Part shown: positions 1,076 to 33,687 of the stretch, one piece after another | Position numbering within the stretch: the stretch's first letter is position 1 | Layout: the number at the start of each line of letters is the position of its first letter | Source: a virus | Lineage: Duplodnaviria > Caudoviricetes | Strand: one strand, 5' to 3' | IMG/VR virus record: IMGVR_UViG_3300027759_000007 | Span: 1,145-65,144 of that record | Length of the DNA: 64,000 bases | The notes under the pieces: model-generated | The model's database searches: none | Told to the model about the DNA's origin: nothing | Seen by the model: only the letters and a program-made list of their open reading frames with translations | Translations under genes and position numbers: made by a program

Positions 1076-3685
1076 ATGTCTGCCAAGTATCTTTTTGGTC
1101 GCTCTGTAAAGAGCAACCAGCTATCACCATCATCTGCCCGCACGTTCACTGAGCTGATTAAAAAGCACATAGAACCTGCCTTTAAGCTCGCGATGACACG
1201 CGATGTTTATCAGAACTTACAAACGCGGGAGGAAAAACTCTCAGCCAAGGATGGACACTACCTCATTCCATGCACCATTGACTCCGAAGAGCCATCGCGT
1301 GCCGCCGAGCATCGCCCAGGACCGTGCAACCTTGTATTTATTGACATTGACGAGGCCAAGGATGCTCGAACGCTGATTTCTCGACCTGACAACATGGTGC
1401 GAGCACTAAGCGATTGGAACTTTGCCGCTTACACGACAGCGAGTTCGACGCCCGAGAAGCCACGTCTCCGCGTCGTGGTAGATGCAGACAGTATTCCAGC
1501 GGATAACTACGAGAAGGTGGTCCACTTTGTCGCGTCGAAGCTAGGCTTGCAGGAGGTCACAAGTGAGTCGCTCAAACCCAAGCAGCCGATGATCTTACCC
1601 AGCATCTTCTCAGATGATGACCCAGACACGCAGCACCCGCTTATTGTCTGCCAACTTACAGGCCGAGCGCTCACGGTTAGGGACATCGCTAGCTTCGATA
1701 CAAAGATCGAAGTGGCAAAGGTGGTAGGCAAAGCCATCCATAAAGCTGAAGGCTGGCACGGGGAGAACGAAGATGATGGACTGCAATACTTGAGAGCGCC
1801 ATTGTTAGGAATTACCGTCGATATGGCTCGGGAGGCTCTTAAATGCGTAGATCCCGACAAGGACTACTTCACATGGCTCGACATGGCTTCGGCCCTCAAG
1901 CACCAGTGGGGGCACTCAGACCCAGATGCAGCTTTCCACCTGTTCGATCAATGGAGCATGGATGGAAAAGGTGGTAAATACCTTGGTGAAGATGACACGC
2001 TCGCCAAGTGGAATTCTTTGAAGCCAACACCTAAAGGTCGTTTGCCCGTAACCATTCGATCTCTAATCAAGCGAGCCACGGAAGCAGGATGGAACGCAGC
2101 TCCCGCCAAGGAGGCGTGTTTCAAAGCTGTGCAGGACTGGATCACATTAGAAGCCCGAACGATTCAAGACTTCTCGGTCACAGCATTAGAGCGTGTCGCT
2201 GCCCTGCCAGCACCTACAGCATCCGAGGAGTCCATGCTACTCGGAGCTATCTGTTCACTACTCAAAGAAAGACACGGTGAGCGCGTAACCAAGACTGACT
2301 TGGCAAAAGACTTGAAGAAGTTGCGTGATCGTAGAGCTAGGGCCAAGGACGAGAACCGTGAAAAAATACCAGCGTGGTCAATCGGTTGGTGTTACGTTAC
2401 CAAAGACTGCTTGTTCTTTCGTCCGACCACCGGACAGCGCATCAATGCAGAAGCACTCAACTCGGCATACAGTCGTGAGCTTCTTCCCACAAAGGATTGG
2501 TTGGAATCACAGGGTAAGGACGCCACGCCAGAGGAAGCAAGCAAGCCGATTATGTTCCCAGCAGACTACCTGCTCAACCATCAGAAGTGTCTGGTGTGCG
2601 ATGGTTACATCTACGATCCGAGCAGCCCAAATGACGTGTACTCAGACGACGCTAACGGATTCAGATCAGTGAATTACTACCAAAAATGCACCACCAAACC
2701 TGACTCTGACGCATCCGCTAGCGCGTCCCTTATGTGGATCAACCACCTGTCCAAACTTATAAAAGAACCAGAGTACCGTCAGGTTCTCACGGACTACATC
2801 GCCTACATGGTGCAGTTCCCCGGTCGAAAAATCCGCTGGGCTATATTGATTCAAGGCGCTGAAGGCTGCGGCAAGTCTTATCTATCTAAAATACTCTCCA
2901 CAGTTCTTGGTGAACCAAATGTCAAGATGATCAATAATGACATCCTGAGATCGACATGGACCGACTGGGCTACAGGCTCACAGGTGGTAATTCTTTCGGA
3001 AATCCGCGTATCAGGGCAAAATAGGCATGACATTATGAATCGTCTCAAGGAGGCAATTACCGATGATCGCATACCCATTAACCAGAAGGGCAAAGACAGC
3101 CGCACCGTGGTCAACGTGACCAATTACATCGGATTTACCAACTTTCCAGACGCATTGGCCGTAGGAGAAGGAAGTCGTAGATGGTTTGTCATTAAATCAC
3201 CCTTGCAAACTCCTGAGCAGGTAAAAGCGCTTGGTGAAGACTATTTTGATGAGCTATTTCAAGACCTATTGCAGAACCCTGGAGGCTACCGAGCCTTTTT
3301 TGAGACCTGGAACATCAGCAGCGATTTCTCCCCAGACGGTAGAGCACCCGAAACCATCTATCTCAAAGAGATGATCGAGGACAGTGCCGACGTAGTTTCT
3401 GCATCCATCAAAGAGCTGATTCGCGAGAATGAGAATCCTTTGATCGCAGACGACCTTATTTCTCAGACGATTTTGAAGGAATATCTTGATACGAAAGAAA
3501 CGTCACAGTATGTTACTCGAATCCTTCGAGAAAACCAATACAACTTGGTCTTTGGAAGGGCTGAGATAAACGGAATCAAACATCGGCTCTGGATCAAGTC
3601 AGGGTCGTTTGAAGGTCTTGAGCCTTCACAAATATACGAAATCGCGAGATCGCGGCACAACCAAAATGAAGGAGACTGGATATGA
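1076..3685 (+). CDS. Primase-helicase (AEP-like N-terminus, PriCT-2, SF3/DUF5906-type helicase)
   Basis: FIDID and YTTASS..KPRLRVV primase motifs; PriCT-2-like DYFTWLDMASALKH..FDQWS..KY; Walker A QGAEGCGKS. Confidence 0.88.
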   Translation: MSAKYLFGRSVKSNQLSPSSARTFTELIKKHIEPAFKLAMTRDVYQNLQTREEKLSAKDGHYLIPCTIDSEEPSRAAEHRPGPCNLVFIDIDEAKDARTLISRPDNMVRALSDWNFAAYTTASSTPEKPRLRVVVDADSIPADNYEKVVHFVASKLGLQEVTSESLKPKQPMILPSIFSDDDPDTQHPLIVCQLTGRALTVRDIASFDTKIEVAKVVGKAIHKAEGWHGENEDDGLQYLRAPLLGITVDMAREALKCVDPDKDYFTWLDMASALKHQWGHSDPDAAFHLFDQWSMDGKGGKYLGEDDTLAKWNSLKPTPKGRLPVTIRSLIKRATEAGWNAAPAKEACFKAVQDWITLEARTIQDFSVTALERVAALPAPTASEESMLLGAICSLLKERHGERVTKTDLAKDLKKLRDRRARAKDENREKIPAWSIGWCYVTKDCLFFRPTTGQRINAEALNSAYSRELLPTKDWLESQGKDATPEEASKPIMFPADYLLNHQKCLVCDGYIYDPSSPNDVYSDDANGFRSVNYYQKCTTKPDSDASASASLMWINHLSKLIKEPEYRQVLTDYIAYMVQFPGRKIRWAILIQGAEGCGKSYLSKILSTVLGEPNVKMINNDILRSTWTDWATGSQVVILSEIRVSGQNRHDIMNRLKEAITDDRIPINQKGKDSRTVVNVTNYIGFTNFPDALAVGEGSRRWFVIKSPLQTPEQVKALGEDYFDELFQDLLQNPGGYRAFFETWNISSDFSPDGRAPETIYLKEMIEDSADVVSASIKELIRENENPLIADDLISQTILKEYLDTKETSQYVTRILRENQYNLVFGRAEINGIKHRLWIKSGSFEGLEPSQIYEIARSRHNQNEGDWI

Positions 3686-4673: not shown

Positions 4674-5894
4674 ATGTCTAAACCCTCAAAAATTTCACTT
4701 GCGGCAAGTTCGTCGGGCTGTTGGTCGAAATGCACAGCCCAGCCCCATTACGTCTTAGCCAACGCGAAGCACATCCCGCCACAGGACACCCAGTTCTCCG
4801 TGGAAGGAACGAACGCGCACACAGTTGTTGAGTGTCTGTTCAAAGGTCTTCCGCTGCCTGCGTTCGCAACGCCAGAGATGACCAAGCACGCCACCAATTT
4901 CGTAGCTTACTGTTCGCAGTTTGAGAGCGACTGGGCTTACTCAGAGTTGAAGGTCGATCTGTTCTACATGCCAGGGCGCAATGGTTACGTTGACTGGTGC
5001 TCCTTCGCTCCTGACGTGATCGACATTGCTGACTTCAAGTACGGTCAGGGTGTGTCCGTCTCAGCCAAGGAGAACCTTCAGATGTCCATCTATGCTCGTA
5101 GCGCCATCAAGCAGAAGAAAATCCCCGTTCGACCCGACACCAAGGTCCGATTACACATCGGACAGCCACGGGTCAGACAAGGTGAGCGCATCAGTGTGTG
5201 GGAGATCAATTACGCCGAGTTGGAGCAGTTCACCGATGACAACGTGGTAGGACCATCACAGGTCATCCTCAACCGAACAGATGACCTCACCTTCCACTCA
5301 AGCGACAAGACCTGCCAGTTCTGTCCAGCCAAGACCTTCTGCGGGCTGAAGGGATACGAGCCAGCGTTCGCCTACCAGGGCGCAATGAGAGCACAGGCAG
5401 TGACTAAAGGCACACCATTGGAAGACTTGACCAAAGGAGCTATCCCTGTCCTAAAACCTGTAAGTGAGACATCTGATGACGTGATTGTGAGCATCATCAC
5501 CCGTAAGTCAGAGATTGTCGCATGGCTCAACACCTTCGAGAAGTATGGACTTCAGATGGCAGCGAGCGGCACAGCACTCCCTGGCACCAAGATCGTCACC
5601 AGTAAGGGTGGTCATCGGTCGTGGAGTGACCCGCTTGAAGCCAAGATCATGTTCCTTGAGCTTGTCGAGTCTGGCAAGATCACCAAAGACCAAATTATTG
5701 AGGAGAAGTTGCTCACGCCCAAGCAAGCCGAGGAGTTTGAGTTCGATTTCGAGAAGGACAGATGGAAGGAAGTCCAATCCCTTATCTTCAAGCCCAAAGG
5801 CAAGCCTGTGCTCGCGTCACTGGATGATCCACGCCCAGCTTACACAGGTGAGGCTGACATCTCAGGACTCTTTGATGAGGAAGAAGAAATTTGA
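4674..5894 (+). CDS. Cas4-like PD-(D/E)xK exonuclease (DUF2800 family)
   Basis: EGTNAH, GYVD, IADFKYGQG, NLQMSIYA, CQFCPAK..C motifs; sits in the nuclease-SSB-PolA module. Confidence 0.85.
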   Translation: MSKPSKISLAASSSGCWSKCTAQPHYVLANAKHIPPQDTQFSVEGTNAHTVVECLFKGLPLPAFATPEMTKHATNFVAYCSQFESDWAYSELKVDLFYMPGRNGYVDWCSFAPDVIDIADFKYGQGVSVSAKENLQMSIYARSAIKQKKIPVRPDTKVRLHIGQPRVRQGERISVWEINYAELEQFTDDNVVGPSQVILNRTDDLTFHSSDKTCQFCPAKTFCGLKGYEPAFAYQGAMRAQAVTKGTPLEDLTKGAIPVLKPVSETSDDVIVSIITRKSEIVAWLNTFEKYGLQMAASGTALPGTKIVTSKGGHRSWSDPLEAKIMFLELVESGKITKDQIIEEKLLTPKQAEEFEFDFEKDRWKEVQSLIFKPKGKPVLASLDDPRPAYTGEADISGLFDEEEEI

Positions 5895-5904
5895 AGATTC
5901 AGTA

Positions 5905-5933
5905 TTGACACTTCTGAAATCAGAAACTATGCT
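5905..5933 (+). promoter_or_regulatory. Sigma70 promoter with operator in the spacer
   Basis: TTGACA-N17-TATGCT; spacer contains the inverted repeat TTCTGA-AA-TCAGAA. Confidence 0.8.
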
Positions 5934-6124
5934 TGACTCCTCGACTCCAAAAGTCCTTACCTACACCACCATGAAGTAATCTACCATACGCCAGCACGCG
6001 CAAGCAGGTTCACGGGAGCCGCTGGAGGAAGCAAACCGTTCTATGATCATACAACGAAGGAGACTGAGTAACCTGCCTGTAAGTGGCTGCTCAATTTGCT
6101 GCGAAACACAAAACCGATACCCCT

Positions 6125-6721
6125 ATGAGCACTAACACCACCCCCGGCGAAATCGCCCTCCGCAACGTCAAACTCACCTATGTCCACGTCGATAAGCCGT
6201 GGGCTAAACAGGGAGACCCTGAAGACAAGAAGAAGTTCGCCATCACTCCGGTCTTGCCGAAGAACCACCCACAGGTCGCCGCTTTGCAGGCTGCTGCAAA
6301 TGCAGTCGCCGTCGCTAAGTGGGGTGACAAGCTCAACAAGTCTGTTTTCCCGACCTACTGCATCCGTGACACCGACTTGCCTACAGAGGCGAAGCATCGT
6401 GCCAAGGACGGCTTTGGCCCAGGCGTGTTGTTCTTCAACGCATCCCGCAAACCTGCTGATGGACCTCCTGCCGTTCGTCACAAGTCAGTGGCGTCAGGCA
6501 CCGTGCAACTTAACCCTGCCACCAACCCGAACGAGTATCCTTACTCAGGCTCACTCGGCAGCGTCGTGGTGAAGTTTTGGGCACAAGACAACATCCACGG
6601 GCAGAAGATCAACTGCGAGTTGGTCGCTGTTGCCAAGTCCGCAGAAGGCGAGAAGTTGTCTGGAGGAGGCACCGACACCGAAGCCGCAGCCGCCTCGATC
6701 ATGGAAGAAGACGAGGTGTAA
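6125..6721 (+). CDS. ssb: Single-stranded DNA-binding protein (DUF2815 / T7 gp2.5-like)
   Basis: LRNVKLTYVHV..P, FFNAS, YSGS, GEKLSGG motifs, acidic tail EEDEV; ATG at 6125 preferred over GTG 6083. Confidence 0.82.
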   Translation: MSTNTTPGEIALRNVKLTYVHVDKPWAKQGDPEDKKKFAITPVLPKNHPQVAALQAAANAVAVAKWGDKLNKSVFPTYCIRDTDLPTEAKHRAKDGFGPGVLFFNASRKPADGPPAVRHKSVASGTVQLNPATNPNEYPYSGSLGSVVVKFWAQDNIHGQKINCELVAVAKSAEGEKLSGGGTDTEAAAASIMEEDEV

Positions 6722-6810
6722 CCGATTGAGAAATTTAGGGGTGCGTATTCTCACTAATCAAATGTGATCCCCGAGAAGGTGCAAAGCCTTCACTTACTTT
6801 TCACAATCTT

Positions 6811-7065
6811 ATGGCTAAAAAAGCATCATCCAAAAAACCAAACCTATCAGTCGGACGTGGCGAGAAGTTGCCAGTATCCAAAGGTGCTGGACTCACTGCT
6901 AAAGGCCGCGCCAAGTATAACGCTGCTACAGGGTCAAACCTAAAGGCACCCGCCCCCAAGCCCAAGACCGAGGCAGACAAGGGCAGGAAGGCTAGCTTCT
7001 GCGCTCGCAGTTCCTCTTGGACTGGCGAGCGGGGCAAGGCAGCACGCAAACGCTGGGCTTGCTGA
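6811..7065 (+). CDS. Small basic phage protein (resembles DUF6321)
   Basis: GLTAKGRAKYN...NLKAP...RKASFCAR...RKRW.C; family name recalled, not searched. Confidence 0.7.
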   Translation: MAKKASSKKPNLSVGRGEKLPVSKGAGLTAKGRAKYNAATGSNLKAPAPKPKTEADKGRKASFCARSSSWTGERGKAARKRWAC

Positions 7066-7069
7066 CACA

Positions 7070-7560
7070 ATTTGTGAGCTAGGAAGGAACGCCTAGCAAT
7101 TCAAGACTCCTACCTGTATGGCGTAGAGCAGGGTAAACCGAGCGGTAAAGTCCGTATAACGCCAGCAATTTCCACGGTCCCTTGTGTTTTTCATATTCCG
7201 CAAGGTAGGTGTTCTCTCCCGAATCACCCGCACCAGCCAGTCCTGTGCGCCCAGTCGAAGCAGGTGGTTTCGTTTCCACCCTCTAACCTGTTGTGAGTCG
7301 CAACAGGGCTTTGCAAAAGATTGGCCCGACTCACCTTTTTGATAGTAGAGTCCAGCGTCGGGGTGCGAGAGCACCAGATCGAGCGATTAGTCATCGCAGT
7401 GCAGGCTTAGACTGAGCTTGCCCGCTGGACTCTACTATCTGAAGGTTGAATTGAGCGGACATGGAGAAGCATGGCGACTTCCTCAATCCAAGGTTAGCAG
7501 CAGGTTCGACTCCTGCCATGTCAGCGGGGACGCCCGCAACGCTCAATTCAGCCTTCCATA
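7070..7560 (+). ncRNA. Candidate large structured ncRNA with tRNA-like modules
   Basis: About 500 nt without a credible ORF; perfect 17-bp stem 7341-7357/7423-7439 and 17-bp stem 7441-7457/7540-7556 (one G-U), each closing a multibranch domain. Confidence 0.7.
7458..7522 (+). ncRNA. tRNA-like element (non-canonical)
   Basis: GACATG/CATGTC acceptor-like stem, D-arm GAAG-CATGGCGA-CTTC, T-arm GCAGG-TTCGACT-CCTGC; anticodon arm degenerate, no CCA. Confidence 0.6.
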
Positions 7561-7582
7561 AAACTAATTTCTGAATAACCAA

Positions 7583-7807
7583 ATGAACTTTTCTAACATG
7601 CGTATATGGACAGGCCAAAAAGAACAAGATGGGTGTCGTTTGGAGGTAAGTGACCCGTGGTTCTACCGAACGGAATTTGAACTCATAGCCAAGCAGCATC
7701 GAGAAACTTCAATAGGAGCTAAGTTTGTAGCCTTCCCAGCTTTCAAAGATGGCTACCTCCACAGCATGATGGTGTTCATGCTTCCTCCATACAATCACGC
7801 TGGATAA
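7583..7807 (+). CDS. Hypothetical protein
   Basis: 74-aa ORF; same ataaccaaATG start context as the polymerase. Confidence 0.6.
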   Translation: MNFSNMRIWTGQKEQDGCRLEVSDPWFYRTEFELIAKQHRETSIGAKFVAFPAFKDGYLHSMMVFMLPPYNHAG

Positions 7808-7811
7808 CCAA

Positions 7812-9947
7812 ATGCCTCTGACTCTCCATCTTGATTTCGAGACAAAAAGTAGGTGCGACCTGCCGAAACGAGGCGCGTACCGTTATGCAAACGACGCTTC
7901 GACATCTATCTTGTGCGTGGCGATTGCAGAAGGGAATGGCGAACCTGTGCTGTGGAACACTTGGCAACGCCCCCATTTTTCCCCTGCTTGGAACTTGATT
8001 GAAGCAGCGTCAGACCCCAGCACCATCATCTACGCCCACAACGCGGGATTCGAGCGCTCAATCAGCGATGCTCTATGGACCAAGACCTTTGGACTGCCAG
8101 CACCCCACTACTCACAGTGGCGTTGCACCGCAGCAATGGGAAGGCGTGCGGCACTGCCAGCTAGTCTGGAAAAGCTGGCAGAGGCGCTCAAGCTCGGACA
8201 TCAGAAAGACCCGAAGGGGAAGGCGCTCATTCGCAAGTTCTCGATCCCACAAACCGTGGGCAAGTTGAAAGGGCAGTTCATCAACCCCGAGGACGAGCCA
8301 GAGGCATTCAAGGAGTTCTGCCAGTACTGCATCCAAGATGTCAAAGTCGAGCAGGAGATTCACCGAGTCCTCAAAGACTTCGAGCTTTCTGGCATTCCGC
8401 TTGAGACGTTCATCCTCGACATGGAGATCAATGGTCGTGGCTTCCCCGTGAACCTCGACGCCCTGCACAAGGCTCTCAAAATTGTAGAGGAGGAGAGTGA
8501 AAGGCTCGGCGGAGAGTTTACCAAACTGACAGGATGCTCACCCAACCAGAATGCCGTGTTCCTCGCATGGCTCAAGGAACGTGGCTACGAGGGCGACAAC
8601 CTGCGTGCTGAGACGTTGGAGGAGACACTGGAAGATGAAGACTTCGACCCAACAACCGAGGTCGGACAGGCGCTCACCCTCAAGAAGCAAATCAGCTACG
8701 CCTCGCTCAAGAAGATCCCGTCAATGATCAACTGCGCTGGGCCTCACGACAACCGAGTTCGTGGAACACTCACTTTCCACGGTGCGGGACCGGGGCGATG
8801 GAGCGCGACACTGGTGCAGCCTCAGAACTTTAAGCGTCCGACCATTGATGAGACGGAAGCAGTCTATGACGCCATCTGCTCGGGCTGCGATGCGACGTGG
8901 CTGCGTGAGATATATGGATCACCCTTGGAGATGGTGTCATCAAGCATCAGACACTTTATCCACGACACCGAGAATGGCGACATGCTGGATGCTGACTACG
9001 CAGCTATCGAAGCTCGCGTCATCGCATGGCAGGCACAAGAGGAGTGGAGACTTGAGGTGTTTCGCACTCACGGCAAGATTTACGAAGCATCGGCTTCTCA
9101 GATGTTCAAAGTCCCTTTCACTGAGTTTGAGCAATACAAGAAGGAGCATGGTAAAGTCCACCCGCTGCGCCTGAAGGGGAAGGTGGCAGAGTTGGCCCTC
9201 GGCTATCGTGGAGGACCTGGGGCAATGGAGAAGATGGGTGCGCTCAAGCAAGGACTCACCAAGAAGGAGCTACCTGCCATCGTGAAAGCATGGCGCGAGG
9301 CTTCCCCGAGCATCGTCAAACTGTGGGATGAAACCGAAGCCGCAGCGGTGCAGGCTGTCAGAACACCTAACATCAAAATTCCATTCGGTGTGCGGTGTCA
9401 CTTCATCAGCACTCGGACGGCGGGGATGAACTACCTTTTCATGGTACTGCCGAGCGGTCGCCGTATTGCTTACCCAGATCCTATGATTGAGAAGGTGCTT
9501 GTGTGGGGCGTGAAGAAGATCATCAAAGATGAGAACGACGGAGATGTGGAGGAGATGAGCTGGTTCAAGATTCTCAACCCCACCACTGATCAGATTCTTC
9601 AGGTTAAAGAGAAGCACTCGAATGCCCGCACCAAGGACGGCTTGACAATCTTCAGCCAGCTACCCAAAACCGTCCATTGGGGGAGATCGCTGACTCACGG
9701 CGGGATTCTCGTTGAGAACTGTGTCCAGGGTATAGCCTTCGACTTCATGGCAGAAGGTGCCCTCAACGCCAGCAAAGCAGGCTACGAAATCTGTGCCCTC
9801 ATCCACGATGAAGCCCTGTCAGCCTACCATCCTGAGCAGGGACAGACGCTTGAGGAGTTTGTCGCGCTTTTGACAAAACTTCCTGCATGGGCTGACGGAA
9901 TGCCGTTGAAAGCAGAGGGTGATGTCGTTAAATTCTATAAAAAATGA
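7812..9947 (+). CDS. polA: Family A DNA polymerase with 3'-5' exonuclease
   Basis: Exo motifs LDFET, AHNAGFER, YCIQDV; Pol motif A DYAAIEARV, motif B RLKGKVAELALGY, motif C IHDE. Confidence 0.96.
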   Translation: MPLTLHLDFETKSRCDLPKRGAYRYANDASTSILCVAIAEGNGEPVLWNTWQRPHFSPAWNLIEAASDPSTIIYAHNAGFERSISDALWTKTFGLPAPHYSQWRCTAAMGRRAALPASLEKLAEALKLGHQKDPKGKALIRKFSIPQTVGKLKGQFINPEDEPEAFKEFCQYCIQDVKVEQEIHRVLKDFELSGIPLETFILDMEINGRGFPVNLDALHKALKIVEEESERLGGEFTKLTGCSPNQNAVFLAWLKERGYEGDNLRAETLEETLEDEDFDPTTEVGQALTLKKQISYASLKKIPSMINCAGPHDNRVRGTLTFHGAGPGRWSATLVQPQNFKRPTIDETEAVYDAICSGCDATWLREIYGSPLEMVSSSIRHFIHDTENGDMLDADYAAIEARVIAWQAQEEWRLEVFRTHGKIYEASASQMFKVPFTEFEQYKKEHGKVHPLRLKGKVAELALGYRGGPGAMEKMGALKQGLTKKELPAIVKAWREASPSIVKLWDETEAAAVQAVRTPNIKIPFGVRCHFISTRTAGMNYLFMVLPSGRRIAYPDPMIEKVLVWGVKKIIKDENDGDVEEMSWFKILNPTTDQILQVKEKHSNARTKDGLTIFSQLPKTVHWGRSLTHGGILVENCVQGIAFDFMAEGALNASKAGYEICALIHDEALSAYHPEQGQTLEEFVALLTKLPAWADGMPLKAEGDVVKFYKK

Positions 9948-20385: not shown

Positions 20386-20929
20386 CACCGATCTTCTCAT
20401 CCACTTGCTTGAGCACCTCCATAGGCATCAGCGCCTTGGAGGTGATGTCACACCCACACGCAAGGCAGGACCGACGAAACACTTCAGGAGCACGGTGAAC
20501 ACGGCGACGGCCCATCAGGGCTGTCAGCTCCTTGGCAAGCCATCCACACCCGCCACAACTGATCTGACCATTCTTGGGGCAGGCAGCACAGATGTCGAGC
20601 CTCCGACGATGCTCTTCCTCACTGACCATCTCGCCATTCTTGCGAAACTCGTTCATGGTAGTGATAAACCTTCTCACGTCGTCACCTGTGAACCAACGAC
20701 GCTTTGAGCCGACCTCTTCCCACTCTAGCTTGGGGTTGTTGAGGATGACGGTCTCATGGATCTCGTCCACCCACCCCGGCTCCAGCGGCAGCGAGCAAGC
20801 GTTACGGTGGTCCCTAATCTTCTTCAAGAACGCACTCCAGCTCCAGTCTGCTGACGTTACGCCTGTCTCGGGCTGTGTATAAGTCCACATGCCTCCTACG
20901 GGGTGATTGGTGTTGACGATGTGCCTCAT
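20339..20929 (-). CDS. Cys-rich hypothetical protein
   Basis: RRLDICAACP, CGGC, CLACGC, CW; coupled to the giant gene by ATGA. Confidence 0.75.
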   Translation of the reverse strand: MRHIVNTNHPVGGMWTYTQPETGVTSADWSWSAFLKKIRDHRNACSLPLEPGWVDEIHETVILNNPKLEWEEVGSKRRWFTGDDVRRFITTMNEFRKNGEMVSEEEHRRRLDICAACPKNGQISCGGCGWLAKELTALMGRRRVHRAPEVFRRSCLACGCDITSKALMPMEVLKQVDEKIGATPEYAPGCWMIEDA

Positions 20930-23900
20930 TTCTTTTGGTCGTTATAGGTCATTACGCCAGCTCCAAAGAGCATGAGCGTGGTAAGTGCTGCGCCTTTTGG
21001 CATTCCGTGAGCTTCCATCGTTTCTCTGGCTTCATCAAAGGACATAGGCACCGTCATCTTGTATGCTATATCCATAGGTGTGACAGTCTCACCAATGACG
21101 TTCTCACCTGTGACAAGATCGACAACTCCGCCGAACGCAGGAGAGAACTTTGTCCGCATGAAGGTAGAACCAACGTCGAACACGTTGCTACCGCCATAGG
21201 GCACCTTGTCAGTCTTGGCGACTTCGCGGAACAAGTTGGGTAGGCGAAAGGTGTCACGGATCGGAACGATCTTTCCTGACGCTGATTTCTTTTCACCTGC
21301 GATGATGCGGGAAACAAACACCGTGGCTTGGATCAAACCACCGAGAGGATCGACGCGAGTGTCTCCATAGCGAATCTTGAGGAAGTCACTGGAGCGAGGA
21401 TCAAACTCAAGAGGCTTGTCCTCGTCGTCTTGTGCCATGCCTGCCAGTGCGTACACGATGGCAGCGCCCATGATAAACTTAGCATACTCTTGGAGAACTA
21501 AGGCTTTCGTGCGTCCAGTTGCTTTGAAGATTGGCATCCCGCCGATGATCTGGAATCGGCTCACAACCAGACGTGGAGCGAAGAAGATGGTGTTAAGACC
21601 AACCGCAGCCTGATTGAATGCTCCTTTGCCAAGGTCTCCACGTCCCGTAGCTACATTGATGTAGCGTGCAATCGACTCCATCTCCTCACGGGTAGGTGTT
21701 GGGCCTTTCTGAAGTTGATTCAGCAAAGAGTCAAAGGTGTCCGCCCGCATATTGTTGAGGAACGCTAGGTAGGCACGCTGGGAGCCACGCACTAAACTGC
21801 CGATGAACAAACCCTTCACACCACCGGGAATCTTGTCAACCCAGCGAGACATGAACGCCTCCTCCTGTGCAGACATCTTGGTTTGATCAGTCTCAGCAAT
21901 GTAAAGCCCTGCCATCACATAGTTGCGCCAGTTGTCACGTTGCTTCAGACGTTTCAAAGAAGCCTTGGAAACATCATCAGACGTGAATGCCTTGAGCATT
22001 GGTCCGATGTTTCTGAAAGCGCGGATGGGGTTGCCAAGTCCGATGAACCCGCCCTGACGGAGCACGGCGCTCAAATCCATACTGGTGAGAATAGCTCGGG
22101 AAGTGTTGAGAACCTGCCCGCCAGTGTCGAACATCCGTTGCAGTTTTGTCCGTGAGGCGAGATGAGCCTCAAAGACTTTCTTCGACCACTCGGCTTTAAT
22201 GTTGTCGAGGTCGATCTCCAACTGCATCAGGGAGTCGTCATACACCTTAGCAACCTTGGGGCGTTTGCGGAAGTCGCTTTTAGCAATTCGGTCCTCGTAG
22301 CCTTGGATCACACGTTGAAGCTGCTTGCGGTCTGCTTTGATCTTCTCGGCAACTGGGTCTCTGGCAGCATCTTCTTTGACCTTACGGAGACGTTGCACCT
22401 CTTCGCGCAGCGAGTCCCGTTCAGCACGGAGGTTCTTGATCTTCGCGACTTCTGGCGTCTTTGAGGGGCGAGTCTTGGAAGCAAGGTCGCCTTCGTTGAT
22501 TTGCTTGTTGAGGCTATCAATCGACTTCTCAAGACTGGCGACCGCAGCGTCAACCAATTCGTCATCAGTTTTTTGCTTCTTCCTGAAGCCGAGGTCTTCT
22601 TTCAGTTGGTCACGCTGCTCACGGAGAGTTTCGACTCTGGCTTTAAGTCGGAATAACTGCGGAGACATCTCAGGCTTTAAGCCTTCCTTGGGCGCAAAGT
22701 CCTGTTCACGAATCTGCTTCTCCAATGCGTCAATCTGACGAGTAAGGGAAGCCTGGGCATCCTCGTTTACCTGCTCCTGCGTGCGAACGGGTAGTCCTTC
22801 CTCCTTGATGCGGAGTTCTTTCAGTGTTTGGGAAAGGGCATCGCGTGCGTCCATCTTTACTTGAAGCTGCTCGGTGAGCGGCGTCTTGTTCTGAGTAGGT
22901 GCGAAGTCTTTTTCTTTGATCTTGCGCTCAAGCTCCGTGATCTGCTTGTTAAGGTCTTTGAGACGAGCGGTAATGCGCTCCTGTGCTGTCGGTGGACGTG
23001 GAGGGTCAATCTCGTCTAGCTGCTTCTGGAGAGCGTCACGCTGGGCTTTTAGCTTGTTAGCTTCATCGTCATACTCCACGTCTTTGCGTGGACGATCAGT
23101 GCGCTTGCGCTCTTTGATCTGCTTATCAAGGTCTTCGATGCTGTTCTTTAGACGGGACTTTACTGCGTCCAAAGGCGTCTTGATATTCCTGCCACTAGGG
23201 GCTTGTGGAATGTCCAAGTCCTTCATCGTCTGGTTGAGCAGACGCAAGGCTTCACGTTCTTCAGGAGTCGTCTCATCACGCTGCAAGCCCGCACGCAATG
23301 GAGCAACGCCAGCACGGGCACGCTCTAACTTGTCGAATAGAAGCTCAAGACGACGCATCTGGCGCAGCTTGACGGCAGCGGCTTCAGGATCGGGGAACTT
23401 CACCTTCCCATAACCTGAGAACATGTCGCGAAGCTGCTGCTCAGTGATGGAGGGATCAAACTCGTTGACCTCCTCGGTGATAACACCGAACACCTCATCA
23501 AGCAGTTCCTTGGAGTCACGCTTCAAGCCTGCCTCACCTTGCTCGACAAGCCACTCTTTCACACGGTTGTAAACCCAGCGGTCAGAGAGGGACTCGCCTT
23601 GGGACTCTACCAGTTGTTCGGCGTAGGACTTGGTGGTGCCTTCTTCAGGTTTCTCAAACACCGACTGCTCAGCTTCGAGGAGAGCGTCAGCTTCTTTCTT
23701 GATTTGAGGGATATGCTTCTCAATACCAGGGCCAAAGTCGCCAATCATCTTGGCAGTCAGGTCAGCTAAAGACACCACGCCTTCCGCAATGTAGGAAGCC
23801 ATGATGACGGCGTGATCGAAGAGGTCGGCAGGGTTGAGGCCCATGTTGAGATTTCCCCCACGTTGACGGATGCGCTTCCGAGCTTCCTCACGTTTTTCAA

Positions 23901-26900
23901 CAAGGAAGTCCTTCATCGTTGTGCCCTTCTTGGCAGCGATGCGGGACTGAGCAATCAGGTCGTTGGCGGTCTTCTTGGTGAGCGCCATCGCCTCTTTGAA
24001 AGTCTCATCGAAGACACTCGTTAGCTCGGCTTCGGCACCTGCGGAGGCTTTGGTCTTGGCGATCTCTGCCTCGATTTTGGTGATCTTCGAGTGAGTGGCT
24101 TGGGCGTCAGCCTTTTCCTCTTTGGAGAGTTCTGCTTGCTTGGCTCCTTGAAGGCGCACGACCATGTTGGCGAGGCTAAAGTCCATCCAAGCTGACATTT
24201 TGCGGAAGTTGAGCGCACGACCACTGAAGGTGCCCATGACAGCACTCGCTTGCTGGACATCTGCCAGGGCGTTAATGGCGTCAGAGACGCGCTGATTCGC
24301 CGACTCTAGCTCACTGGCAGAGGCTTTGGTCTGAGCCTCCACGGCTGCATTGTAGGAGTTGGTGCGGACGACGGCTTCACGCAGTAGGATAGGCACCTCC
24401 ACGGGTGACACCTCGCGAGGACGTGAAAGCATCTCACTGACAAGCTCGGAACCTCTGTTCGGGTTCCGCTCCATCTCGACTCGGGCATCTTCCCACGCCT
24501 TTTCCCACTTGTAGGGGCCATCGAGCGGTGTCTCAAGCTGCGGCAGTCCGAGGATCTCAGCCACTTGGTTGAGTTGCTCGTTGACGATGCTGACTGGACC
24601 TTCAAGGGGTGTAGGTTCTGCTGCTGCTGCTGCTGCTGCTGCTGCGGGTGGCTTAGCAGGCGGCGGCGGTGGCGGCTCAGACGCCTTCGTCTCAGGTGCA
24701 GGTGGCTCCGCTTCCACTGGCGCAACTCCATCCATCCCATCAAAGGCATATTTCTCCCTGACTGCGTTGTAGATGTCTTGAAGGTTCTCCTGGATGCTCG
24801 GGCCAAGTTCGTCGATCATCTTCTTGGAGAAAGCAGCGAATGTGCGTGCTCCACGCTCCACGTAGTAAGCACCAATAACGACTGCATCAGCGAGCGCTGT
24901 GGGGTCGAGCAGCAGGTTCGTTGATCCGCCGAGACGGGTCTTGCTCTTGATGTCTTTGAGAGCCTTGGCGACTCGTTCCTCGGTAATGAGGGTGTTTTTG
25001 GATGCCTCGAACTTGGCCCGCCCTTTGGGCGTTTCCGGCAGGATGTAAACAATCCCACCTGTCCCTGAGAACAGCGGGTCAATCACCTCATCAAAAAGTG
25101 AGTCAGGCACGTTCACACAACCTGATGAAATTCGATTATCTACAGGGGATTTTGAACTCAATCGGTCAGAGCGATTCTGCGATGGAATACCCTGATAAAC
25201 ACGGTGGACTGCTAAAACACTGTCCTCTTTTTCGAGGAAATCGAGAGTCTTACCATAGTTATATTCGTTGTTGGCATCAGGGTCGATAGTGGCTTCAAAA
25301 CGCCCTGATGGTGTAACCTTCCCACCATTGAGCGTGTCCCCTTTGTCCATCCCGAACAGTGCAGACTCACTACGCACCAAGACGCCCGAGCCATTAAACA
25401 CATACATCTTGCCACCTGTTTTGTCACCGACCACGAAGGGGCGACCATTTGCATTGTTAGAATCGACCACCCAGTTAGCGGTAGAGACAACCATAGATGG
25501 AGCACGGGTGCCTTTGAAATCGGCTTTCTTCGTCAGCTTCATGCCGCCGATGCCTACACGCTTACCTGCAACATCCCCGACAGGGAGCAGGCTGGCAGGA
25601 GGCATGTCTCCAAGTGATCGGTCCTTTGCGCTTACCGTTGAAAGCACAGGGTCAAAGGACTTTGTGACGGGCACGTCAACGTAAGTGGCTTGGGTGTTTC
25701 CTGTCTGCGAAGACACCGCGATGATTCCACCAAGCAGTAACGTCTTAACTTTTGAAGCCAGCTTCGCGAAGATTTTGGCGAGACGACTGGTAGCCGCCTT
25801 GGCTGTTACCAACCAGTCTGCATAGGCTTCTCGGAAAGACTTCTTCGCTTCTGCATTCCACTCGGACTGGCCCAGGTCTTCTGCGGCTTCCTGCTTCTCT
25901 TGCGAGGTCAGAGAGGCGTCGATCTCTTGATCCACCTCTACCGTTGGTTCTGGAGCAGGATTCTCTGCCTTCACCCCACCATCAGGTCGGTAAACATAAA
26001 GCTCACCATCTGCGACGTAGCCTTCTGGGAGCGTGATGCCGTAGGTGTCAACGGCGGCTTGGGAGACTGGCTTCTGATCCACCAAGGCTTTATTCACCTC
26101 GCCATAGTGGTCGGATGCACCACGCTTTATGTCGGATTCTGTCGGGGTTGAAACTTTATCTAAACGTTCCTTGGTGTCTTTTATCGCAGCAGCTTTAGAT
26201 TTGTAGTTCTGCCCACCTGAGAAGCCCCATGTCTGGCCTGTTTTCGCAAGCTCATAATCCTGCTTGGCAAGTTCAATGACTTCTTGATGCCCAAGCTGAC
26301 CACGCTCCTCTGGCGTCATCTGCTCAGGCTTCGACGTGTCACGCTGTCCGCTTGGACTTGGCTCGGTGAGGGTGGTGGGTGACTCCTGCTTTTGTGAAGA
26401 CAACCACTGCGCGTAGTCATGCTCGGCTTTGGTGACAATGAACCGAGCGCCGCTCTCTGTCTCTAGCGAGTACTCCGTCTTGTTGCCTGCTGCTTTCCGC
26501 TTGCGCTCGAACTCCGCCTGCTCACGGTTGTCCATGCGGTTTGACTGCCTGCCTGTCAGGTCTTTAATAGCAGGAACTTCCTCAGTCTTTGGAGCATAGC
26601 CGTCCTCCACCATCTCGCGGATAACTTTCTCACGTTGACCTGTGTAGTCTTTATTCTTTTCGGTGCTCCTGCGGGCGGTGCTCTCTTGTAGAGTCTTCTT
26701 CAACTTACCACGCTGCATGGCGGTGAGGTCGAGGTCATCCAAGTAGTCGTTGAGAGGCTTGTCCTTTGCCTCTTGCTCTGCTTTGGCAGCTTCAGCCTTG
26801 GCCTGCTGTTTATCGAAGAAAGCCTTGTTCTGCCTCTCCATGTCTTGCTGACGCAGCGACTCCTTGATAGCCTCTTCTTGAGAATCTACAATCTGATCTC

Positions 26901-29900
26901 CAAAGCCTCGTTTGTCGGATTGCTGAATGAGCCAACGGCTACCAGATTGGTAAACACTGTACTTCCCTTCTTGTGGGACACCTTCAGCAGCACTTGACTT
27001 TCCCGTTTCTTCGGTGTTCTTCTGCACAGTAACGGCAGGGATCGACCCCTCTGCCGTGGTTGGCAACTGACTAGGACTGCCCTCCTGTGTTTGCGCGACT
27101 GGGGGGAGGGTTTCTTTTTGGGACTTTTCACGCTCGTAGATGCGCTGCGACATGCGTGCAATCTCTTCGCCTTTGCTGTTGTCGGACATCCCGCTCCATG
27201 AAGTGTCACCCTGCTCGGCAGCAATCGCTGAAAGCTCGGTCCTCCATTTTGCTCCTGCTGACTCCACTCGCGGTGTTATCTCTGCACTGATACGACGCAT
27301 ACCTGTGAGCATGGCAGCACTGTCGTCTTTGATTTTCTGTAGGTCATCGCGGAGGCTCACAAGCTCACTTTTGCTCATCTTAGCGAAGCTCTTGCCTCGC
27401 TCCTTCCACGTGTTGAAAAGATTGAAGTTGGACGGTTTCGGCCCAAGTATTTCTGCGATTATGTCGGCTTTAGTTTGACTCTTTGCCTTGGCTTCTGAGG
27501 GGGCTTGTGGGGCTACTTGCTCGACGTTCTCCACAGGTTTTGTTTCTTGGCGTTCTTCACCCACACGACGCAGCCACTCCATAGGGACGGTCATCTGTGT
27601 CTTACCTGTCCACACGACAGCTTTGCCTTCTAGCGGCCCACGGTAACTGACTTCAGTATCCGTGCCTGAGTAAGGTGAATACATGATGAGTTTGTCATCA
27701 GGGGAAAACTCTGTTTCTGGCGTCACGACAGTCCCTTTCTCGGCGACGGGTTGGGCTTGGGGAGGCGGGGCTTCCTCTTGGGTTGACTCGCTTCGCATAT
27801 ACTCAAAAAGTGCATCTGCACTTGGAAACTTACGAATCACGGTTCCTTTTTTGAACTGCGGGTTGGCTTTCTCACCTTGAGGAACCCAAGTTGCTTCATC
27901 TGCGACAACCGTGAATCCCCCATCCTTTTGCTTCTCGTAGCGCACATACTGTCCATCTGCGAAGAGAGAGCTTTCAGGAGCTGTGCGTGGGGCGCTACCT
28001 TTGAACTTTTCCAAGTCTGCTTGGAGATAGCCCATCCAGTCTTTTTTGGCCTGCTCCGGTGTGCGGTTCCGAGCTTCTCGCATCATCTCCGCGATGTCTG
28101 TGAACGCCCCAATAGCATCAGCTGTTCTGCGATCAAGTCCCGCATCAAGAGCCTCCTGACGACGCTGCATACCTGTTTTTGGTGCTTGGTTTTCCATCTC
28201 CAACCCTACCTCCGTTTCACCAGCGTCCGCAACTACATTTTCTGTTTGTGGAAACTTATCTTCGGTGATCGGAGGCGTTGGAGCCTCTTCACCTGCTGGT
28301 ATTGGCTCGACGGGCGGGGCGGTTTCTTCGATGGCTGGTTCACTTGGGGGTGTGGGTGTTTCTTTCTGTACAGGCTGTGCCAGAGCGGCTAGGCTTCTTG
28401 CGATTGCCTCCTCAACTTTCTTTTCATAGTCCTTCGTGTTCTGCCCCCCTGCTTGCCTAGACAGCACAGCGTCACCCAAATCCTTCACCAGTTTGTTATG
28501 CGCGGCTAGAGCCGCAGGATCAGGAACTACAGGAGCAGGAGCAGGAGCAGGAGGACGGGCAGGAGCAGGAGGACGGGCAGGAGCAGGAGCCAACTGCGCG
28601 TCTCGCATCGCCTTGAACCTCTCCAAAGCTGCGCTTGCTTGGCTATCGGCAATTGCTGCCGCAGTCGCAGGCAGGACATCCACGTTGGTCATCACTGTCT
28701 CAGCGGTGGCAGTCTCAAGACTCTTCGCCATCTCCTTTGTCTGCTCATTCAGGCGACCGATAAAGGCGTCGTTCGATTCCCCTGGCTCCTGTGTCAGGTT
28801 GCGTACAGGACTCACCCGAACGTCTGCCGTCCCACGGCCACCCATTACGGTTGGCTTGGCTTCGACTTGCGTTGACGTGGCGGTCGGGCGTGCTGGATTG
28901 ACGTAGCGCTCGACGGCTGACTCAAGACCTGATAGTCCTGCTTCAACAACGGTCGTCGGGATTGTCCCTTCGACAGTCTGAGCAATAGCCTCCTCTTCAG
29001 GAGTGGTAGGCACAGCCAAGTCTCGCGGACGCATGAGAGCACCAGCACCCGCCATCCCACCTTCGATCACACCGGAGCCGACAGCACCGAGAGCGCCTGC
29101 CTCTGCGATCTGAGCACCTGTAGCACGGGGGTCTTGGAGATACTCGGTGCCTGCTTCTTGACCACCTTCTTTCAGCATCCCTGCACCGACACCTCTGAGT
29201 GCAGAAGCGACTCCACCTGCGCGGGCGGCTTCGAGTGCTTTAGCACCTCGCAGCATTGGGAGCGCGGCTGATGCCAAGTCGATAGGGCTTTCCTGCATGG
29301 AGAAAGAACGAGTAACCATCTCCTTGCCAAGTCCTTCTGGCATAGCTTTTAACGTGCGTTCGGCTTCGGGCTTCTGCGCTGCCCACCGACGAAGGCGGGT
29401 TTCATACTGTTGATCTGTCTCGGTGACACGATTCTTGAAAGCCTCCCAGCTTTGGGGATCTTTGGTAGCGACGTAATCAGCTAAGAACTGCCGAGCACCT
29501 GCTTCTTCAGGTATGTCTGAGTCAGCCCGTGCTGGGTTGCGGTCAGACTGCATGAAGGCTCCAAGTCTTTCTTGGTCGATGTCGCCCATCCGGTCAGCAG
29601 CTACGCCTGCTCTGGAGACACTGGATATGAGAGCGTCCACATACGCTTGGGTGTCGGGGTCATCAATGTCTTTGGAGTCATACTCGCCACTCAGCCACCG
29701 CTCAAAACCTTGAGGTGATGCGCCTGTGTCCAAATCTTCTCGAAGGCTTTCGAGGAGTGCATCTCGCTGCTCCTGTCGGTCGTTCGGATCAAGTTGCTTG
29801 ATGCGTTGACCTGCGGTGTCCACAAGACCCTTCACCCCCTGCACAAGGCGAGTGCCTGACCCTGTGTTCGTCAAACCGAGTGCATCGGTGGCTGCAAACA

Positions 29901-30188: not shown

Positions 30189-31085
30189 TCAAGGCTGAAC
30201 TGCCGTAGATTTAACAGGGATTTTCTGCATATCCAATGCTCTTTGCAAAAAAGCACTCGGCTTTGGGGTCGCTACAGGCGCGACATCTTCAGGACGCATC
30301 GTGGAGAGCGTGTCATCTGTGACTTTCTGGAGACGCTGATTGTAGCTATCAAGTCGCGCTTTAAGAAGGGCTTTCTCCTCTTTTGTAGCAGCCACTTCAT
30401 AGGCTTTCTCAGTGCGTTCGATGACTTTGGTCAAGAGGCCCATCTCCTTCTCGGCGGGGTTAGGAGGTGTGGAAGCCTTGGAACGAGACCGATCAAAAGA
30501 ACGCCGAGCGGTTTCACGCTTCACCTCCACGGGGTCAAACGTTCCACTCTGCGTCCGATACATGTCGAACTGCTCCCTTGGCACCCCTGCCTCTGCAAGC
30601 TGCTGCATGAGCGGCTCGTTGAACTGATCGGTGCGGTAGGCTTCCCAAGCATCATTAGCGGTCATGCCTTCATCCAGCATCCGACGTTGGAAGTTCTGGA
30701 GAGCACGGGGATCTTTATCCTCCTGAATCTTGGTGTAGAAGTAAGTGCCTAGCTTCTGATCTGCGGGGGTAGCGGCTTGCTGGCGAAACTGCTGATAGTT
30801 TTGAACTAATCCCGCATTCCGACCACGGAAGATGTTTGGATTCTCGATGAGCGTCTGGTTGATCTGTTCATCAGACAAGTTTGGAGCTTGATTCAAGAGT
30901 TCATTCACCAGTTGATCCGCTTCCATCTGCCTCTGCTCTTGCTGGTAGGCTTCATCTTGCTGAAGCATCGCCCGAGCTTGTGGAGAGAACTGCGTGTTTT
31001 GCGAGCCTCCTGCTGGGGCTTTGAAGTAGCTGGTCAGAGGAATATTCCCGAAACCGAAAGTCTGTTCTGGTGTGAGGGCAGGCAT
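30189..31085 (-). CDS. Putative internal virion protein
   Basis: Gln-rich helical 298-aa ORF directly upstream of the giant protein. Confidence 0.6.
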   Translation of the reverse strand: MPALTPEQTFGFGNIPLTSYFKAPAGGSQNTQFSPQARAMLQQDEAYQQEQRQMEADQLVNELLNQAPNLSDEQINQTLIENPNIFRGRNAGLVQNYQQFRQQAATPADQKLGTYFYTKIQEDKDPRALQNFQRRMLDEGMTANDAWEAYRTDQFNEPLMQQLAEAGVPREQFDMYRTQSGTFDPVEVKRETARRSFDRSRSKASTPPNPAEKEMGLLTKVIERTEKAYEVAATKEEKALLKARLDSYNQRLQKVTDDTLSTMRPEDVAPVATPKPSAFLQRALDMQKIPVKSTAVQP

Positions 31086-32951: not shown

Positions 32952-32980
32952 ATTTTACTTGACGATGGGGGTTATGTCAA
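32952..32980 (-). promoter_or_regulatory. Sigma70 promoter
   Basis: TTGACA-N17-TAAAAT, 10 nt upstream of the ATG at 32941. Confidence 0.8.
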
Positions 32981-33000
32981 AGGTTGTTCGTTGCCTAGTT

Positions 33001-33687
33001 TTAGTCCACTCGTTGAATACTCTTCACGGTCAAAAAGAAACTCCCTTCAGACGGTGGCACAAAGTTTACCGTTTTCCCCGAAAAACCAACTCGAAAGTTA
33101 TGGGACTCAACCAAGTTGACGTCCCCAACGCCAGTAGTCGTTCCTTTGAACACGTCTATTCCTACTCTTACTGGAAACCTAAAAATACGTTCTTCTTTTT
33201 TCTGCCAGCTATACGGTTCGTAACTGCTCTCTAGGTTATTTAGATCGTAGTAATTCCCGAAAAAACTGCTTGAGTTGGCAGGTATTGAGCTAGAACGAAA
33301 GGTTATGTTAGCAGATACATAGACAGTTTCTTTTGATAATCCATCGTCAAATACTATTACGTTGTCATCAAGAAAAGCAAAAGGCAAAGCTAAAATAGTT
33401 GAATCTCTAGTCACATAAGCAATAGCTCGTTTGTATGTAAAGGTTTTAGTCCCCCCCGGAGATTGTGAACTTTCAGACCTAATTACTGTGTATGTGATGT
33501 CCGCCAACAAAACAAAATTCCAATCCTCATCCTCCTCTGCTGCCTCATCCGCAATAGGCACTTCAACGGCAATGCCCATGCCGTTGACGCTGGCACCGTT
33601 GCCTGCTGTCGGCTGGACTTGGGCAACTCGGGCAGCGATCTGCTCTTTTGCTGCGCCGTAGAGTTGCTGATATTGGTCGTAGGTCAT
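33001..33687 (-). CDS. Hypothetical structural protein with AT-rich C-terminal domain
   Basis: 228-aa ORF coupled by ATGA; beta-rich C-terminus. Confidence 0.65.
   Translation of the reverse strand: MTYDQYQQLYGAAKEQIAARVAQVQPTAGNGASVNGMGIAVEVPIADEAAEEDEDWNFVLLADITYTVIRSESSQSPGGTKTFTYKRAIAYVTRDSTILALPFAFLDDNVIVFDDGLSKETVYVSANITFRSSSIPANSSSFFGNYYDLNNLESSYEPYSWQKKEERIFRFPVRVGIDVFKGTTTGVGDVNLVESHNFRVGFSGKTVNFVPPSEGSFFLTVKSIQRVD

Follow-up and report, generated by a model that had tools for sequence, protein, structure and literature searches.

We analysed a 64,000-nt window of DNA (bases 1145-65144 of a 65,144-bp IMG/VR record with direct terminal repeats, rated complete) from an uncultured phage, near-identical sequence of which occurs in freshwater/aquatic metagenome runs, and concentrated on two structured elements, domain A (7341-7439, + strand) and domain B (7441-7556, + strand), that lie in a 517-nt gap between two small genes. 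The locus sits inside a replication module whose flanking genes are all on the + strand. Upstream of the gap are a primase/helicase (1076-3685), a DUF2800 exonuclease (4674-5894), a single-stranded DNA-binding protein (SSB) of the Gp2.5/Enc34 type (6083-6721) and the 84-aa small basic protein DUF6321 (6811-7065; Pfam PF19846, E 3.7e-16), which lies outside the RNA feature; downstream are a 74-aa open reading frame (ORF74, 7583-7807), a family A DNA polymerase (7812-9947; PF00476; phrog_17, E 1e-96) that matches the polymerase of Bacillus phage SPO2 over its full length at 38% identity, and genes for DUF3850, a VRR-NUC-like endonuclease and an SNF2 helicase. No close relative of the phage was found among 50,697 deposited phage records, and blastn of the 517-nt stretch against the same records returned no match. 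Our analysis identifies A and B as a new, clamped form of a little-understood kind of phage RNA, the tRNA-like/mini-tmRNA (transfer-messenger RNA) kind represented by RNA1 and RNA2 of phage T5 and by an RNA of mycobacteriophage DS6A.

Both domains fold exactly as the original prediction had described them. Domain A is a clamped four-way junction, in which a perfect 17-bp stem (7341-7357 / 7423-7439) closes three hairpins at 7358-7382 (GAGA loop, 3-nt bulge), 7383-7397 and 7401-7421, with no T-loop among them; its minimum free energy (MFE) of -56.9 kcal/mol compares with a shuffle mean of -30.4 (z -7.41; 0/200 shuffles as low). In domain B, a 17-bp clamp (7441-7457 / 7540-7556) that includes a single G-U pair surrounds a tRNA-like core and a 3' hairpin, and the MFE is -53.9 kcal/mol against a shuffle mean of -33.4 (z -5.26, again with none of 200 shuffles as low). 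The 3' hairpin, GCGGG-GACG-CCCGC (7524-7537, +), lies between the 3' end of the core and the clamp and is not terminator-like because no U-run stands behind it. Only seven inverted repeats of at least 13 nt within 200 nt were found in the 64-kb window, two of which are the A and B stems. The 517 nt as a whole fold at z -6.3, a value carried by A and B.

The MFE helices of the two domains contain no 1x1 mismatch and four G-U pairs, three in A (7361:7379, 7404:7418 and 7408:7414) and one in B (7446:7551). As these four pairs would turn into A-C mismatches on the - strand, they favour the + strand, as had been argued before; the asymmetry is a weak one, however, with the - strand also folding well (z -6.46 for A and -5.68 for B), and a reading at the RNA level on the + strand is reasonable. 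The two clamps, both of exactly 17 bp, carry the same letter at 11 of 17 arm positions, for which our own binomial estimate gives a chance of about 6e-4, so that a shared origin or constraint is probable. The two - strand ORFs that lie over the RNA stretch, weighed earlier as possible genes, have no match in Pfam or PHROG, and no homologue of the 93-aa one was present among 5.8 billion proteins, in a comparison confined to near lengths; as far as tested, 7070-7560 appears to be non-coding.

The original prediction recognised no known family, and at the level of Rfam this stands: at gathering thresholds there were no matches in the whole window, and at E<=10 the 6700-7900 region gave only five, at chance level. 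It does not stand for the core of B (7458-7523, +), a degenerate tRNA-like unit tied, as set out below, to phage tRNA-like and mini-tmRNA genes of the kind reduced to the tRNA-like domain (TLD-only). ARAGORN at default settings called no gene in the stretch; at 80% thresholds it drew a cloverleaf of 66 nt in which the anticodon stem is mismatched and the anticodon loop has 6 nt, in place of a 7-nt loop with a readable anticodon. The 66-nt core has a 6-bp acceptor stem (7458-7463 / 7517-7522), a D-like arm of 4 bp (7466-7481) with GG in the loop at 7473-7474, and a canonical T-arm (7500-7516; GCAGG-TTCGACT-CCTGC), while the anticodon arm is a mismatched stump only, with no usable anticodon. T-loop consensus, D-loop GG and acceptor stem are thus the tRNA traits that it displays. 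Of the tmRNA traits, the G3-U70 pair of alanine identity is an A-U pair in B, the 3' side runs into the hairpin with no ACCA-like end, and a core of this size leaves no room for an mRNA-like tag reading frame.

The T-arm of B together with the 3' strand of its acceptor forms a 23-mer (7500-7522) that occurs at three IMG/VR loci, numbered here L006, L007 and L008, and in none of 185,579 species-representative genomes (an exact-match search, which diverged copies would escape). Units of about 106 nt at L006 and L007, tRNA-like and not called by ARAGORN, are identical to B at 23/23 of these positions and unalignable over the remainder; they belong to a phage of a different type, with 38% G+C and genes for GroEL, a sigma factor and Erf. 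At L008, on a 463-kb phage contig, the same 23-mer lies in an ordinary tRNA-Arg(CCG) (1452-1528), an identity that may be due to shared descent or, phage tRNAs being so numerous, to chance.

A second link to L006 and L007 is a leader motif, CCGACTCACCTTTTTGATAG (7326-7345, +), which in these relatives stands directly 5' of the tRNA-like unit. In the window its core 10-mer, CTCACCTTTT, occupies 7330-7339; A starts directly after it and B lies behind A. Two blocks, 7237-7251 (14/15) and 7326-7345 (17/20), match one contiguous stretch of L006/L007 just upstream of their units, the second ending on the first bases of A, and each block alone is within the shuffled range (null maximum 28, observed 25). 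A search of the whole of IMG/VR with the pattern CCGNCTCACCTTTTNNATAG matched only two contigs, the same two that carry the 23-mer of B, so the co-occurrence of motif and 23-mer is not due to chance. The leader motif is single-copy in each of the three genomes (the window phage, L006 and L007), and we rejected CTCACCTTTT as a repeated promoter or terminator signal on account of this one copy per genome. The 3' arm of B was also seen to resemble the leader motif loosely.

Relaxing the pattern to the 10-mer followed after 75-105 nt by a T-loop yielded 13 IMG/VR loci and a picture of the site behind the motif as a slot with exchangeable contents. Two of the 13, L111 and L120, are L006 and L007 again (L120 and L007 being the same contig). 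L121 shares its left and right flanks with L007, and its cassette (515-619, +) is a TLD-only mini-tmRNA with G3-U70 and an ACUA end; both ends of the tmRNA model are matched and only the middle is deleted (30.6 bits, E 5e-10). Comparison of L121 with L120 (300-760 of each) shows common flanks around a swapped cassette, a mini-tmRNA in one versus a unit with A1-U72, A3-U70 and A5-U68 in the other. Three further mini-tmRNAs stand directly behind CTCACCTTTTTA, at L112 (487-589, -), L113 (487-589, -) and L115 (487-585, -), with 33.4-35.9 bits. All four are about 100 nt long, score 30.6-35.9 bits with the Rfam tmRNA model (E 1e-9 to 1e-11, under its 47-bit cut-off) and carry G3-U70 and the ACUA end around middles unrelated to one another. 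In L110 a left flank of the L007 type precedes a slot occupied by a hairpin and a true tRNA-Met. When the mini-tmRNA loci were compared with cultured phages, the only match was in the T-arm, to pseudo-tRNAs annotated in Yersinia jumbo phages; four text strings were not found in those supplementary files of PMC10690425 (10,006 candidate viral RNAs) that were searched, and that collection may still contain the family.

We then aligned six units (L121, L112, L115, L006, L007 and B of the window) and scored the acceptor and T-arm for covariation. The structure is 98.6% paired across the six, and both partners are exchanged in three of the seven acceptor pairs (two cases of G-C to A-U and one of U-A to C-G), with G3-U70 replaced by A-U in L006, L007 and B. 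No shuffle out of 500 reached the covariation score, and slid controls all dropped to 38-50% paired. B forms 6/7 of the family's acceptor pairs, and its T-stem, GCAGG/CCTGC, is identical to that of the mini-tmRNAs and, being invariant, uninformative on covariation. Covariation of the acceptor over six units that include B argues for its descent from the slot family. In sequence, therefore, the core of B is a sub-threshold, degenerate tRNA look-alike tied by letters and position to phage tRNA-like and TLD-only RNAs, and B belongs by descent to a phage tRNA-like family that includes TLD-only tmRNAs, having lost the tmRNA hallmarks. It shares the T-arm and the homologous, covarying 7-bp acceptor of that family, as A does not, the hairpin 7401-7421 standing in A where the T-arm would be. 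Free 5' and 3' ends at the acceptor are lacking in A and B, the 17-bp clamps having been found in the window only; relatives folded with 60-nt flanks showed no clamp. The covariation asked about in the original prediction is accordingly present in the acceptor helix of the slot family, but for the long stems themselves no clamped homologues were found to compare.

Domain A can be placed less firmly. It occupies the position, directly after the leader motif, that the units hold at L006, L007, L121, L112 and L115, and its interior aligns with that of the L121 mini-tmRNA at a local score of 23 (null 13.7 +/- 2.1; 2/1000 shuffles; one of four comparisons) through a 10-nt exact block and a second, collinear block. 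A may be a more derived tRNA-like or mini-tmRNA-like unit of the same stock.

The original prediction had taken the region for one multi-domain RNA of about 500 nt, a view that its relatives do not bear out. Logan contigs of four runs from three studies were aligned on window positions 5900-8900, of which 7415-7900 had no contig cover in most runs. Relatives in two of the runs (X2 and X4) keep 7162-7340 with one difference, a third (X6) keeps 7071-7212 with 7-18 differences, and the fourth (X7), from an independent study, keeps 7155-7355 with 10 differences. In X2, X4 and X6 the matching ends exactly at 7340|7341, the first base of the A stem; one X2 contig joins 7340 to the polymerase gene through about 190 unaligned bases by our count, against 571 in the window, and the X6 contig continues for 255 unlike bases past 7340. 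The X7 match reaches 15 nt into the A arm, so the clamp is not an artefact of one assembly, and a clamp-bearing relative is indicated in an independent study. The X6 contig also joins 6723 to 7071, a clean gap of 347 nt (6724-7070) with three other letters at the joint, and this relative therefore lacks the DUF6321 gene yet keeps the conserved block. More distant relatives (L002, L089 and L090) carry other content between the SSB and polymerase genes: among the four IMG/VR loci with a related polymerase only L002 extends upstream, with a 243-nt gap that lacks the RNA, and the SSB relatives L089 and L090 have small ORFs in place of A and B. The N-terminus of the polymerase found nine loci in metagenome contigs, at only 30-49% identity. 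With relatives keeping 7071-7340, lacking 7341-7556 and breaking between the two, the region is a composite of two parts with different histories. A and B, absent from close relatives, are a dispensable, lineage-specific insert behind a conserved block.

Copies of the insert were sought in several collections. Apart from the four arms themselves, the phage contains only one further match, with two mismatches and inside a gene. The 17-mer arm of A occurs at five IMG/VR loci as single-arm matches in one unrelated context, scored at 4.5 bits by R1, the single-sequence model of A, and the two arms with their gap have no match in 185,579 GTDB species genomes (exact matches were required, and diverged copies would escape). 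A foldback mobile element resembling a miniature inverted-repeat transposable element was rejected, in that several copies with terminal inverted repeats were not seen (only exact or near-exact arms being detectable).

Of the structure predicted upstream of A, small hairpins are indeed present, but the fold of segment 7066-7340 is not beyond what shuffles reach (+ strand z -1.52, with 17/200 shuffles as low; - strand z -0.04), 7195-7340 reaches z -2.29 (4/200), and the upstream stems as a set are no more than chance. The conserved, leader-like block within it (7202-7340, +), which has no Rfam match, ends in a hairpin and a U-run. A candidate helix, P1, would pair 7293-7300 (GTGAGTCG) with 7327-7334 (CGACTCAC) across a 26-nt loop, followed by C and five T (7335-7340); by reading of the fold, P1 cannot form together with the local hairpin 7287-7307. 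In 7/7 sequences compared, GUGAG/CUCAC pairing was read ahead of a U-run, the GUGAG partner lying 90-130 nt away in the other six and enclosing a middle that varies between contigs. Changes in this helix are one-sided (G-C to G-U), and support for it is therefore suggestive only. The stem of A could extend to 34 bp (7324-7357 / 7423-7456), at the cost of P1 and of the B clamp. We also observed that L006 (1285-1415) and L007 (1288-1415), as well as L110, L112, L115 and L121 upstream of the motif, carry a candidate unnamed RNA element of about 130 nt. It has one conserved block on the 5' side, ACAGGTGRGGTTTAAGGTTGGAA, and another on the 3' side that ends in CCTCACCTTTT, together with a closing helix, a U-run and a middle that can be swapped. 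No Rfam family matches the element, which folds at a z of just -1.3 to -1.9.

We propose that A and B are clamped, non-decoding tRNA-like modules that are processed from a polycistronic RNA and release tRNA mimics, a reading to which we assign a probability of roughly 0.4. The conserved leader-like block, ending in its hairpin and U-run, would be followed by a variable slot filled differently in each phage, which in the window phage holds A and B in tandem, each inside its own 17-bp helix. The units, as we infer, would be transcribed on the + strand together with the replication genes, no terminator-like site having been found after B, and would adopt clamped, cloverleaf-like folds. In B the acceptor, T-arm and elbow might be recognised by host RNase P and by RNase Z or exonucleases, and the long helices by RNase III. 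The cuts would split the polycistronic RNA into an SSB/DUF6321 part and an ORF74/DNA polymerase part, and would also free small, stable tRNA mimics unable to decode. Transcription, the cleavages and the role of any released RNA are inferred only; the earlier suggestion that the long stems are handles around small RNAs is the best reading of A and B.

Several results weigh against this proposal. RNase P does not usually act on a 5' leader that is paired throughout in a helix. A simple scan found no sigma-70-like promoter and no terminator within 7066-7582. The core of B folds at chance when taken alone (z -0.49), scores 16.3 bits (E 0.046; 7457-7524) with the Rfam tRNA model RF00005, under the 29-bit curated cut-off, and with the rest of the phage gave no match to the tmRNA model RF00023 at E<=10, control genomes being positive. 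The third hairpin of A (7401-7421) opens with the letters of the family T-stem, but the T-loop is absent. Both domains are missing from close relatives and hence dispensable. Across the window and 98 loci (559,288 bases), R1 and R2, the corresponding model of B, returned only self-matches and weak tRNA matches; they found nothing in five related phage records, and no homologue of the clamped form was found in IMG/VR, GTDB, the related loci or the phage records. Finally, 6/13 loci of the relaxed pattern (L114, L116-L119 and L122) look like chance co-occurrences beside ordinary tRNAs or unrelated elements, as is to be expected if the collection holds perhaps a million tRNA genes (our rough guess).

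Known systems offer partial parallels. NC_005859 annotates RNA1 (30501-30644) and RNA2 (32959-33083) of phage T5 as 'tRNA-like stable RNA with unknown functions', and RNA2 folds as an acceptor stem, a T-arm and a structured middle. Like A and B, these are phage-encoded and non-decoding, with an acceptor stem, a canonical T-arm and a structured middle in the place of the anticodon arm. They differ in lying in a tRNA cluster and in having no 17-bp clamp; the relation in sequence is confined to a generic T-arm (R2 scores 14 bits, E 0.04, over the tRNA-like core only), and the T5 RNAs are annotated as stable RNAs whereas A and B are predicted from sequence alone. The mini-tmRNAs at L112, L113, L115 and L121 share the slot, the leader motif, an identical T-stem and a homologous covarying acceptor, and the interior of A is like that of L121. 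From the TLD-only kind in general, both these and the DS6A molecule (known to us from the literature only), B is set apart by the lack of G3-U70 and an ACCA-like end and by its D-stem, A by the lack of a T-loop, and both by their clamps.

Phage T7 has RNase III processing hairpins between its genes, single hairpins with an internal loop, which resemble A and B as long double-stranded intergenic stems in a polycistronic phage transcript, but the helices of A and B close multi-branch tRNA-like folds. MascRNA is reportedly a tRNA-like cutting signal of a related type. The t-elements of plant mitochondria, proposed as RNase P/Z cutting signals in the account of PMC1920247, are likewise tRNA-shaped folds between transcription units; here a conserved structured block lies before the unit and an mRNA after it. 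Both t-elements and mascRNA come from other kingdoms, with no homology to A and B; t-elements have no such clamp, and cleavage of A and B is only proposed. Bacterial Y RNAs (YrlA) also combine a long stem formed from two ends with a tRNA-like module, as described in PMC4201824. Unlike in YrlA systems, no Ro/TROVE domain was detected among 56 window ORFs scanned, no Rfam match was obtained, and the stems are perfect, with no bulged Ro-binding helix. In the window the long stem moreover continues from the acceptor end, a topology that differs from that of YrlA.

The alternative that survives best, possible in our view without being probable, is that A and B are young functionless relics, decayed tRNA-like cassettes made palindromic at the DNA level by fold-back or template switching, or small foldback insertions, tolerated in a variable slot. 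Relatives from two studies vary in the presence of A and B, with an abrupt border at 7340|7341, which fits such an origin, as do perfect stems if the origin is recent, the absence of a T-loop from A, the scores of B under the tRNA cut-off and outside the tmRNA model, and the failure to find a clamped homologue anywhere searched. However, A and B are not repeated in the phage itself, in IMG/VR or in the 185,579 species genomes, and decay would have been uneven, having left the T-arm and acceptor strand 23/23 identical to L006/L007 and the remainder unalignable. All four helix imperfections are G-U on the + strand, and the equal length of the clamps with their 11/17 agreement suggests a shared constraint or origin.

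A broader, tentative and rather doubtful reading joins the loci together: the slot behind CTCACCTTTT would be a hypervariable RNA cassette site of unrelated aquatic phages, in which mini-tmRNAs, re-identified tRNA mimics, true tRNAs and helix-clamped units are exchanged. Its RNAs would act as decoys against a host system directed at tRNA or tmRNA, with acceptor identity and RNA middle under diversifying selection and the 17-bp clamp protecting the RNA or timing its release.

A more specific reading, which we consider unlikely, makes B (perhaps A) a decoy in trans-translation that, like a TLD-only tmRNA, binds SmpB (or EF-Tu) and blocks or short-circuits rescue and tagging by host tmRNA. In its favour, the slot in sister contigs holds cassettes that are unmistakable tRNA-like domains of tmRNA, bearing G3-U70 and an ACUA end. 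A TLD-only tmRNA is on record in mycobacteriophage DS6A (PMC4131195), and a similar molecule, chargeable or not, is reported there to inhibit tmRNA strongly, perhaps by titrating SmpB. B itself, however, has A3-U70 in place of G3-U70, no ACCA-like end, no tmRNA-model match (E<=10), a D-stem such as tmRNA domains lack and a 5' end locked in the clamp; A has no T-loop, and an smpB-like gene was not seen in general scans of the phage's ORFs.

Quite unlikely, in turn, is a switch that acts in cis on ORF74 and the polymerase, in which P1 and the U-run (7293-7340) would terminate transcription and pairing of 7324-7340 with the 5' arm of B (7440-7456) would prevent termination. An inverted repeat with 34-nt arms that are 79% complementary (7324-7357 / 7423-7456) does overlap the 3' strand of P1 and the B clamp, P1 and the hairpin 7287-7307 exclude each other, and the helix-plus-U-run end is conserved in the family. 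The alternative helix forms only after polymerase has passed the U-run, however, and hence cannot act on that terminator during transcription; relatives keep P1 yet lack A and B, the terminator scan did not call P1 with its 26-nt loop, and no ligand or factor is indicated. That A and B act as DNA beside the polymerase gene, where a cruciform or single-strand hairpin might be an origin of replication, signal priming or bind a protein, agrees with their location, within the replication module and between the genes for SSB and polymerase, and with perfect arms that fold on both strands, but is very improbable given their absence from close relatives with the same replication genes, a T-loop, D-loop GG and covarying acceptor helix that make sense only as RNA, and a G-U asymmetry that likewise points to RNA. 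Three further identities were dropped by reading: an integron attC site, whose end motifs would be in the wrong order; retrons, type III toxin-antitoxin systems and IS200/IS605 ends, for which partner genes were not found; and a group I intron, the flanking genes being complete.

The proposed modules are bordered by two small genes. A link between the structure and the Lys/Arg-rich DUF6321 protein, as first suggested, was not borne out: 597 of 600 candidate IMG/VR stretches encode DUF6321, 80 loci were kept, and none of the 80 has an A/B-like structure, while the sequence downstream of the gene in the two nearest loci, whose proteins are 92-94% identical, has nothing in common with that of the window. 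The DUF6321 gene behaves as an optional cassette, as seen in the 6724-7070 gap of the X6 relative. On the other side, ORF74 (7583-7807) appears to be a real small gene, with two 74-aa homologues (82% and 70% identity) among metagenome proteins; it has no family match and no relatives in IMG/VR, and it shows no similarity to the ORF that follows the slot in L007. Three copies of a 15-nt gene-start context, CTGRATAACCAAATG, were noted, at 6750-6764, 7571-7585 and 7800-7814 (repeat family D1), and the latter two copies bracket ORF74 exactly, as if it had been inserted or duplicated at the start of the polymerase gene. Elsewhere in the window, an imperfect palindrome (58424-58489; 30-nt arms, 83% complementary, 6-nt spacer) stands where - and + gene blocks diverge; a role as bidirectional terminator, operator or origin is possible. 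A 3079-aa ORF (20926-30165, -) has no Pfam match and only a short DarB-like one (phrog_10089, residues 1720-1912), and most structural genes of the phage are without any family match.

Phages are known to carry non-decoding tRNA-shaped RNAs, such as RNA1 and RNA2 of T5 and the TLD-only tmRNA of DS6A. The locus described here unites a conserved leader, a slot where close relatives exchange a mini-tmRNA for a unit of different acceptor identity, and a derived, helix-locked form. If A and B are expressed and processed, they would provide a compact model for tRNA mimicry in RNA processing and in interference with quality control of host translation. Should they be relics, they would illustrate how such cassettes decay.

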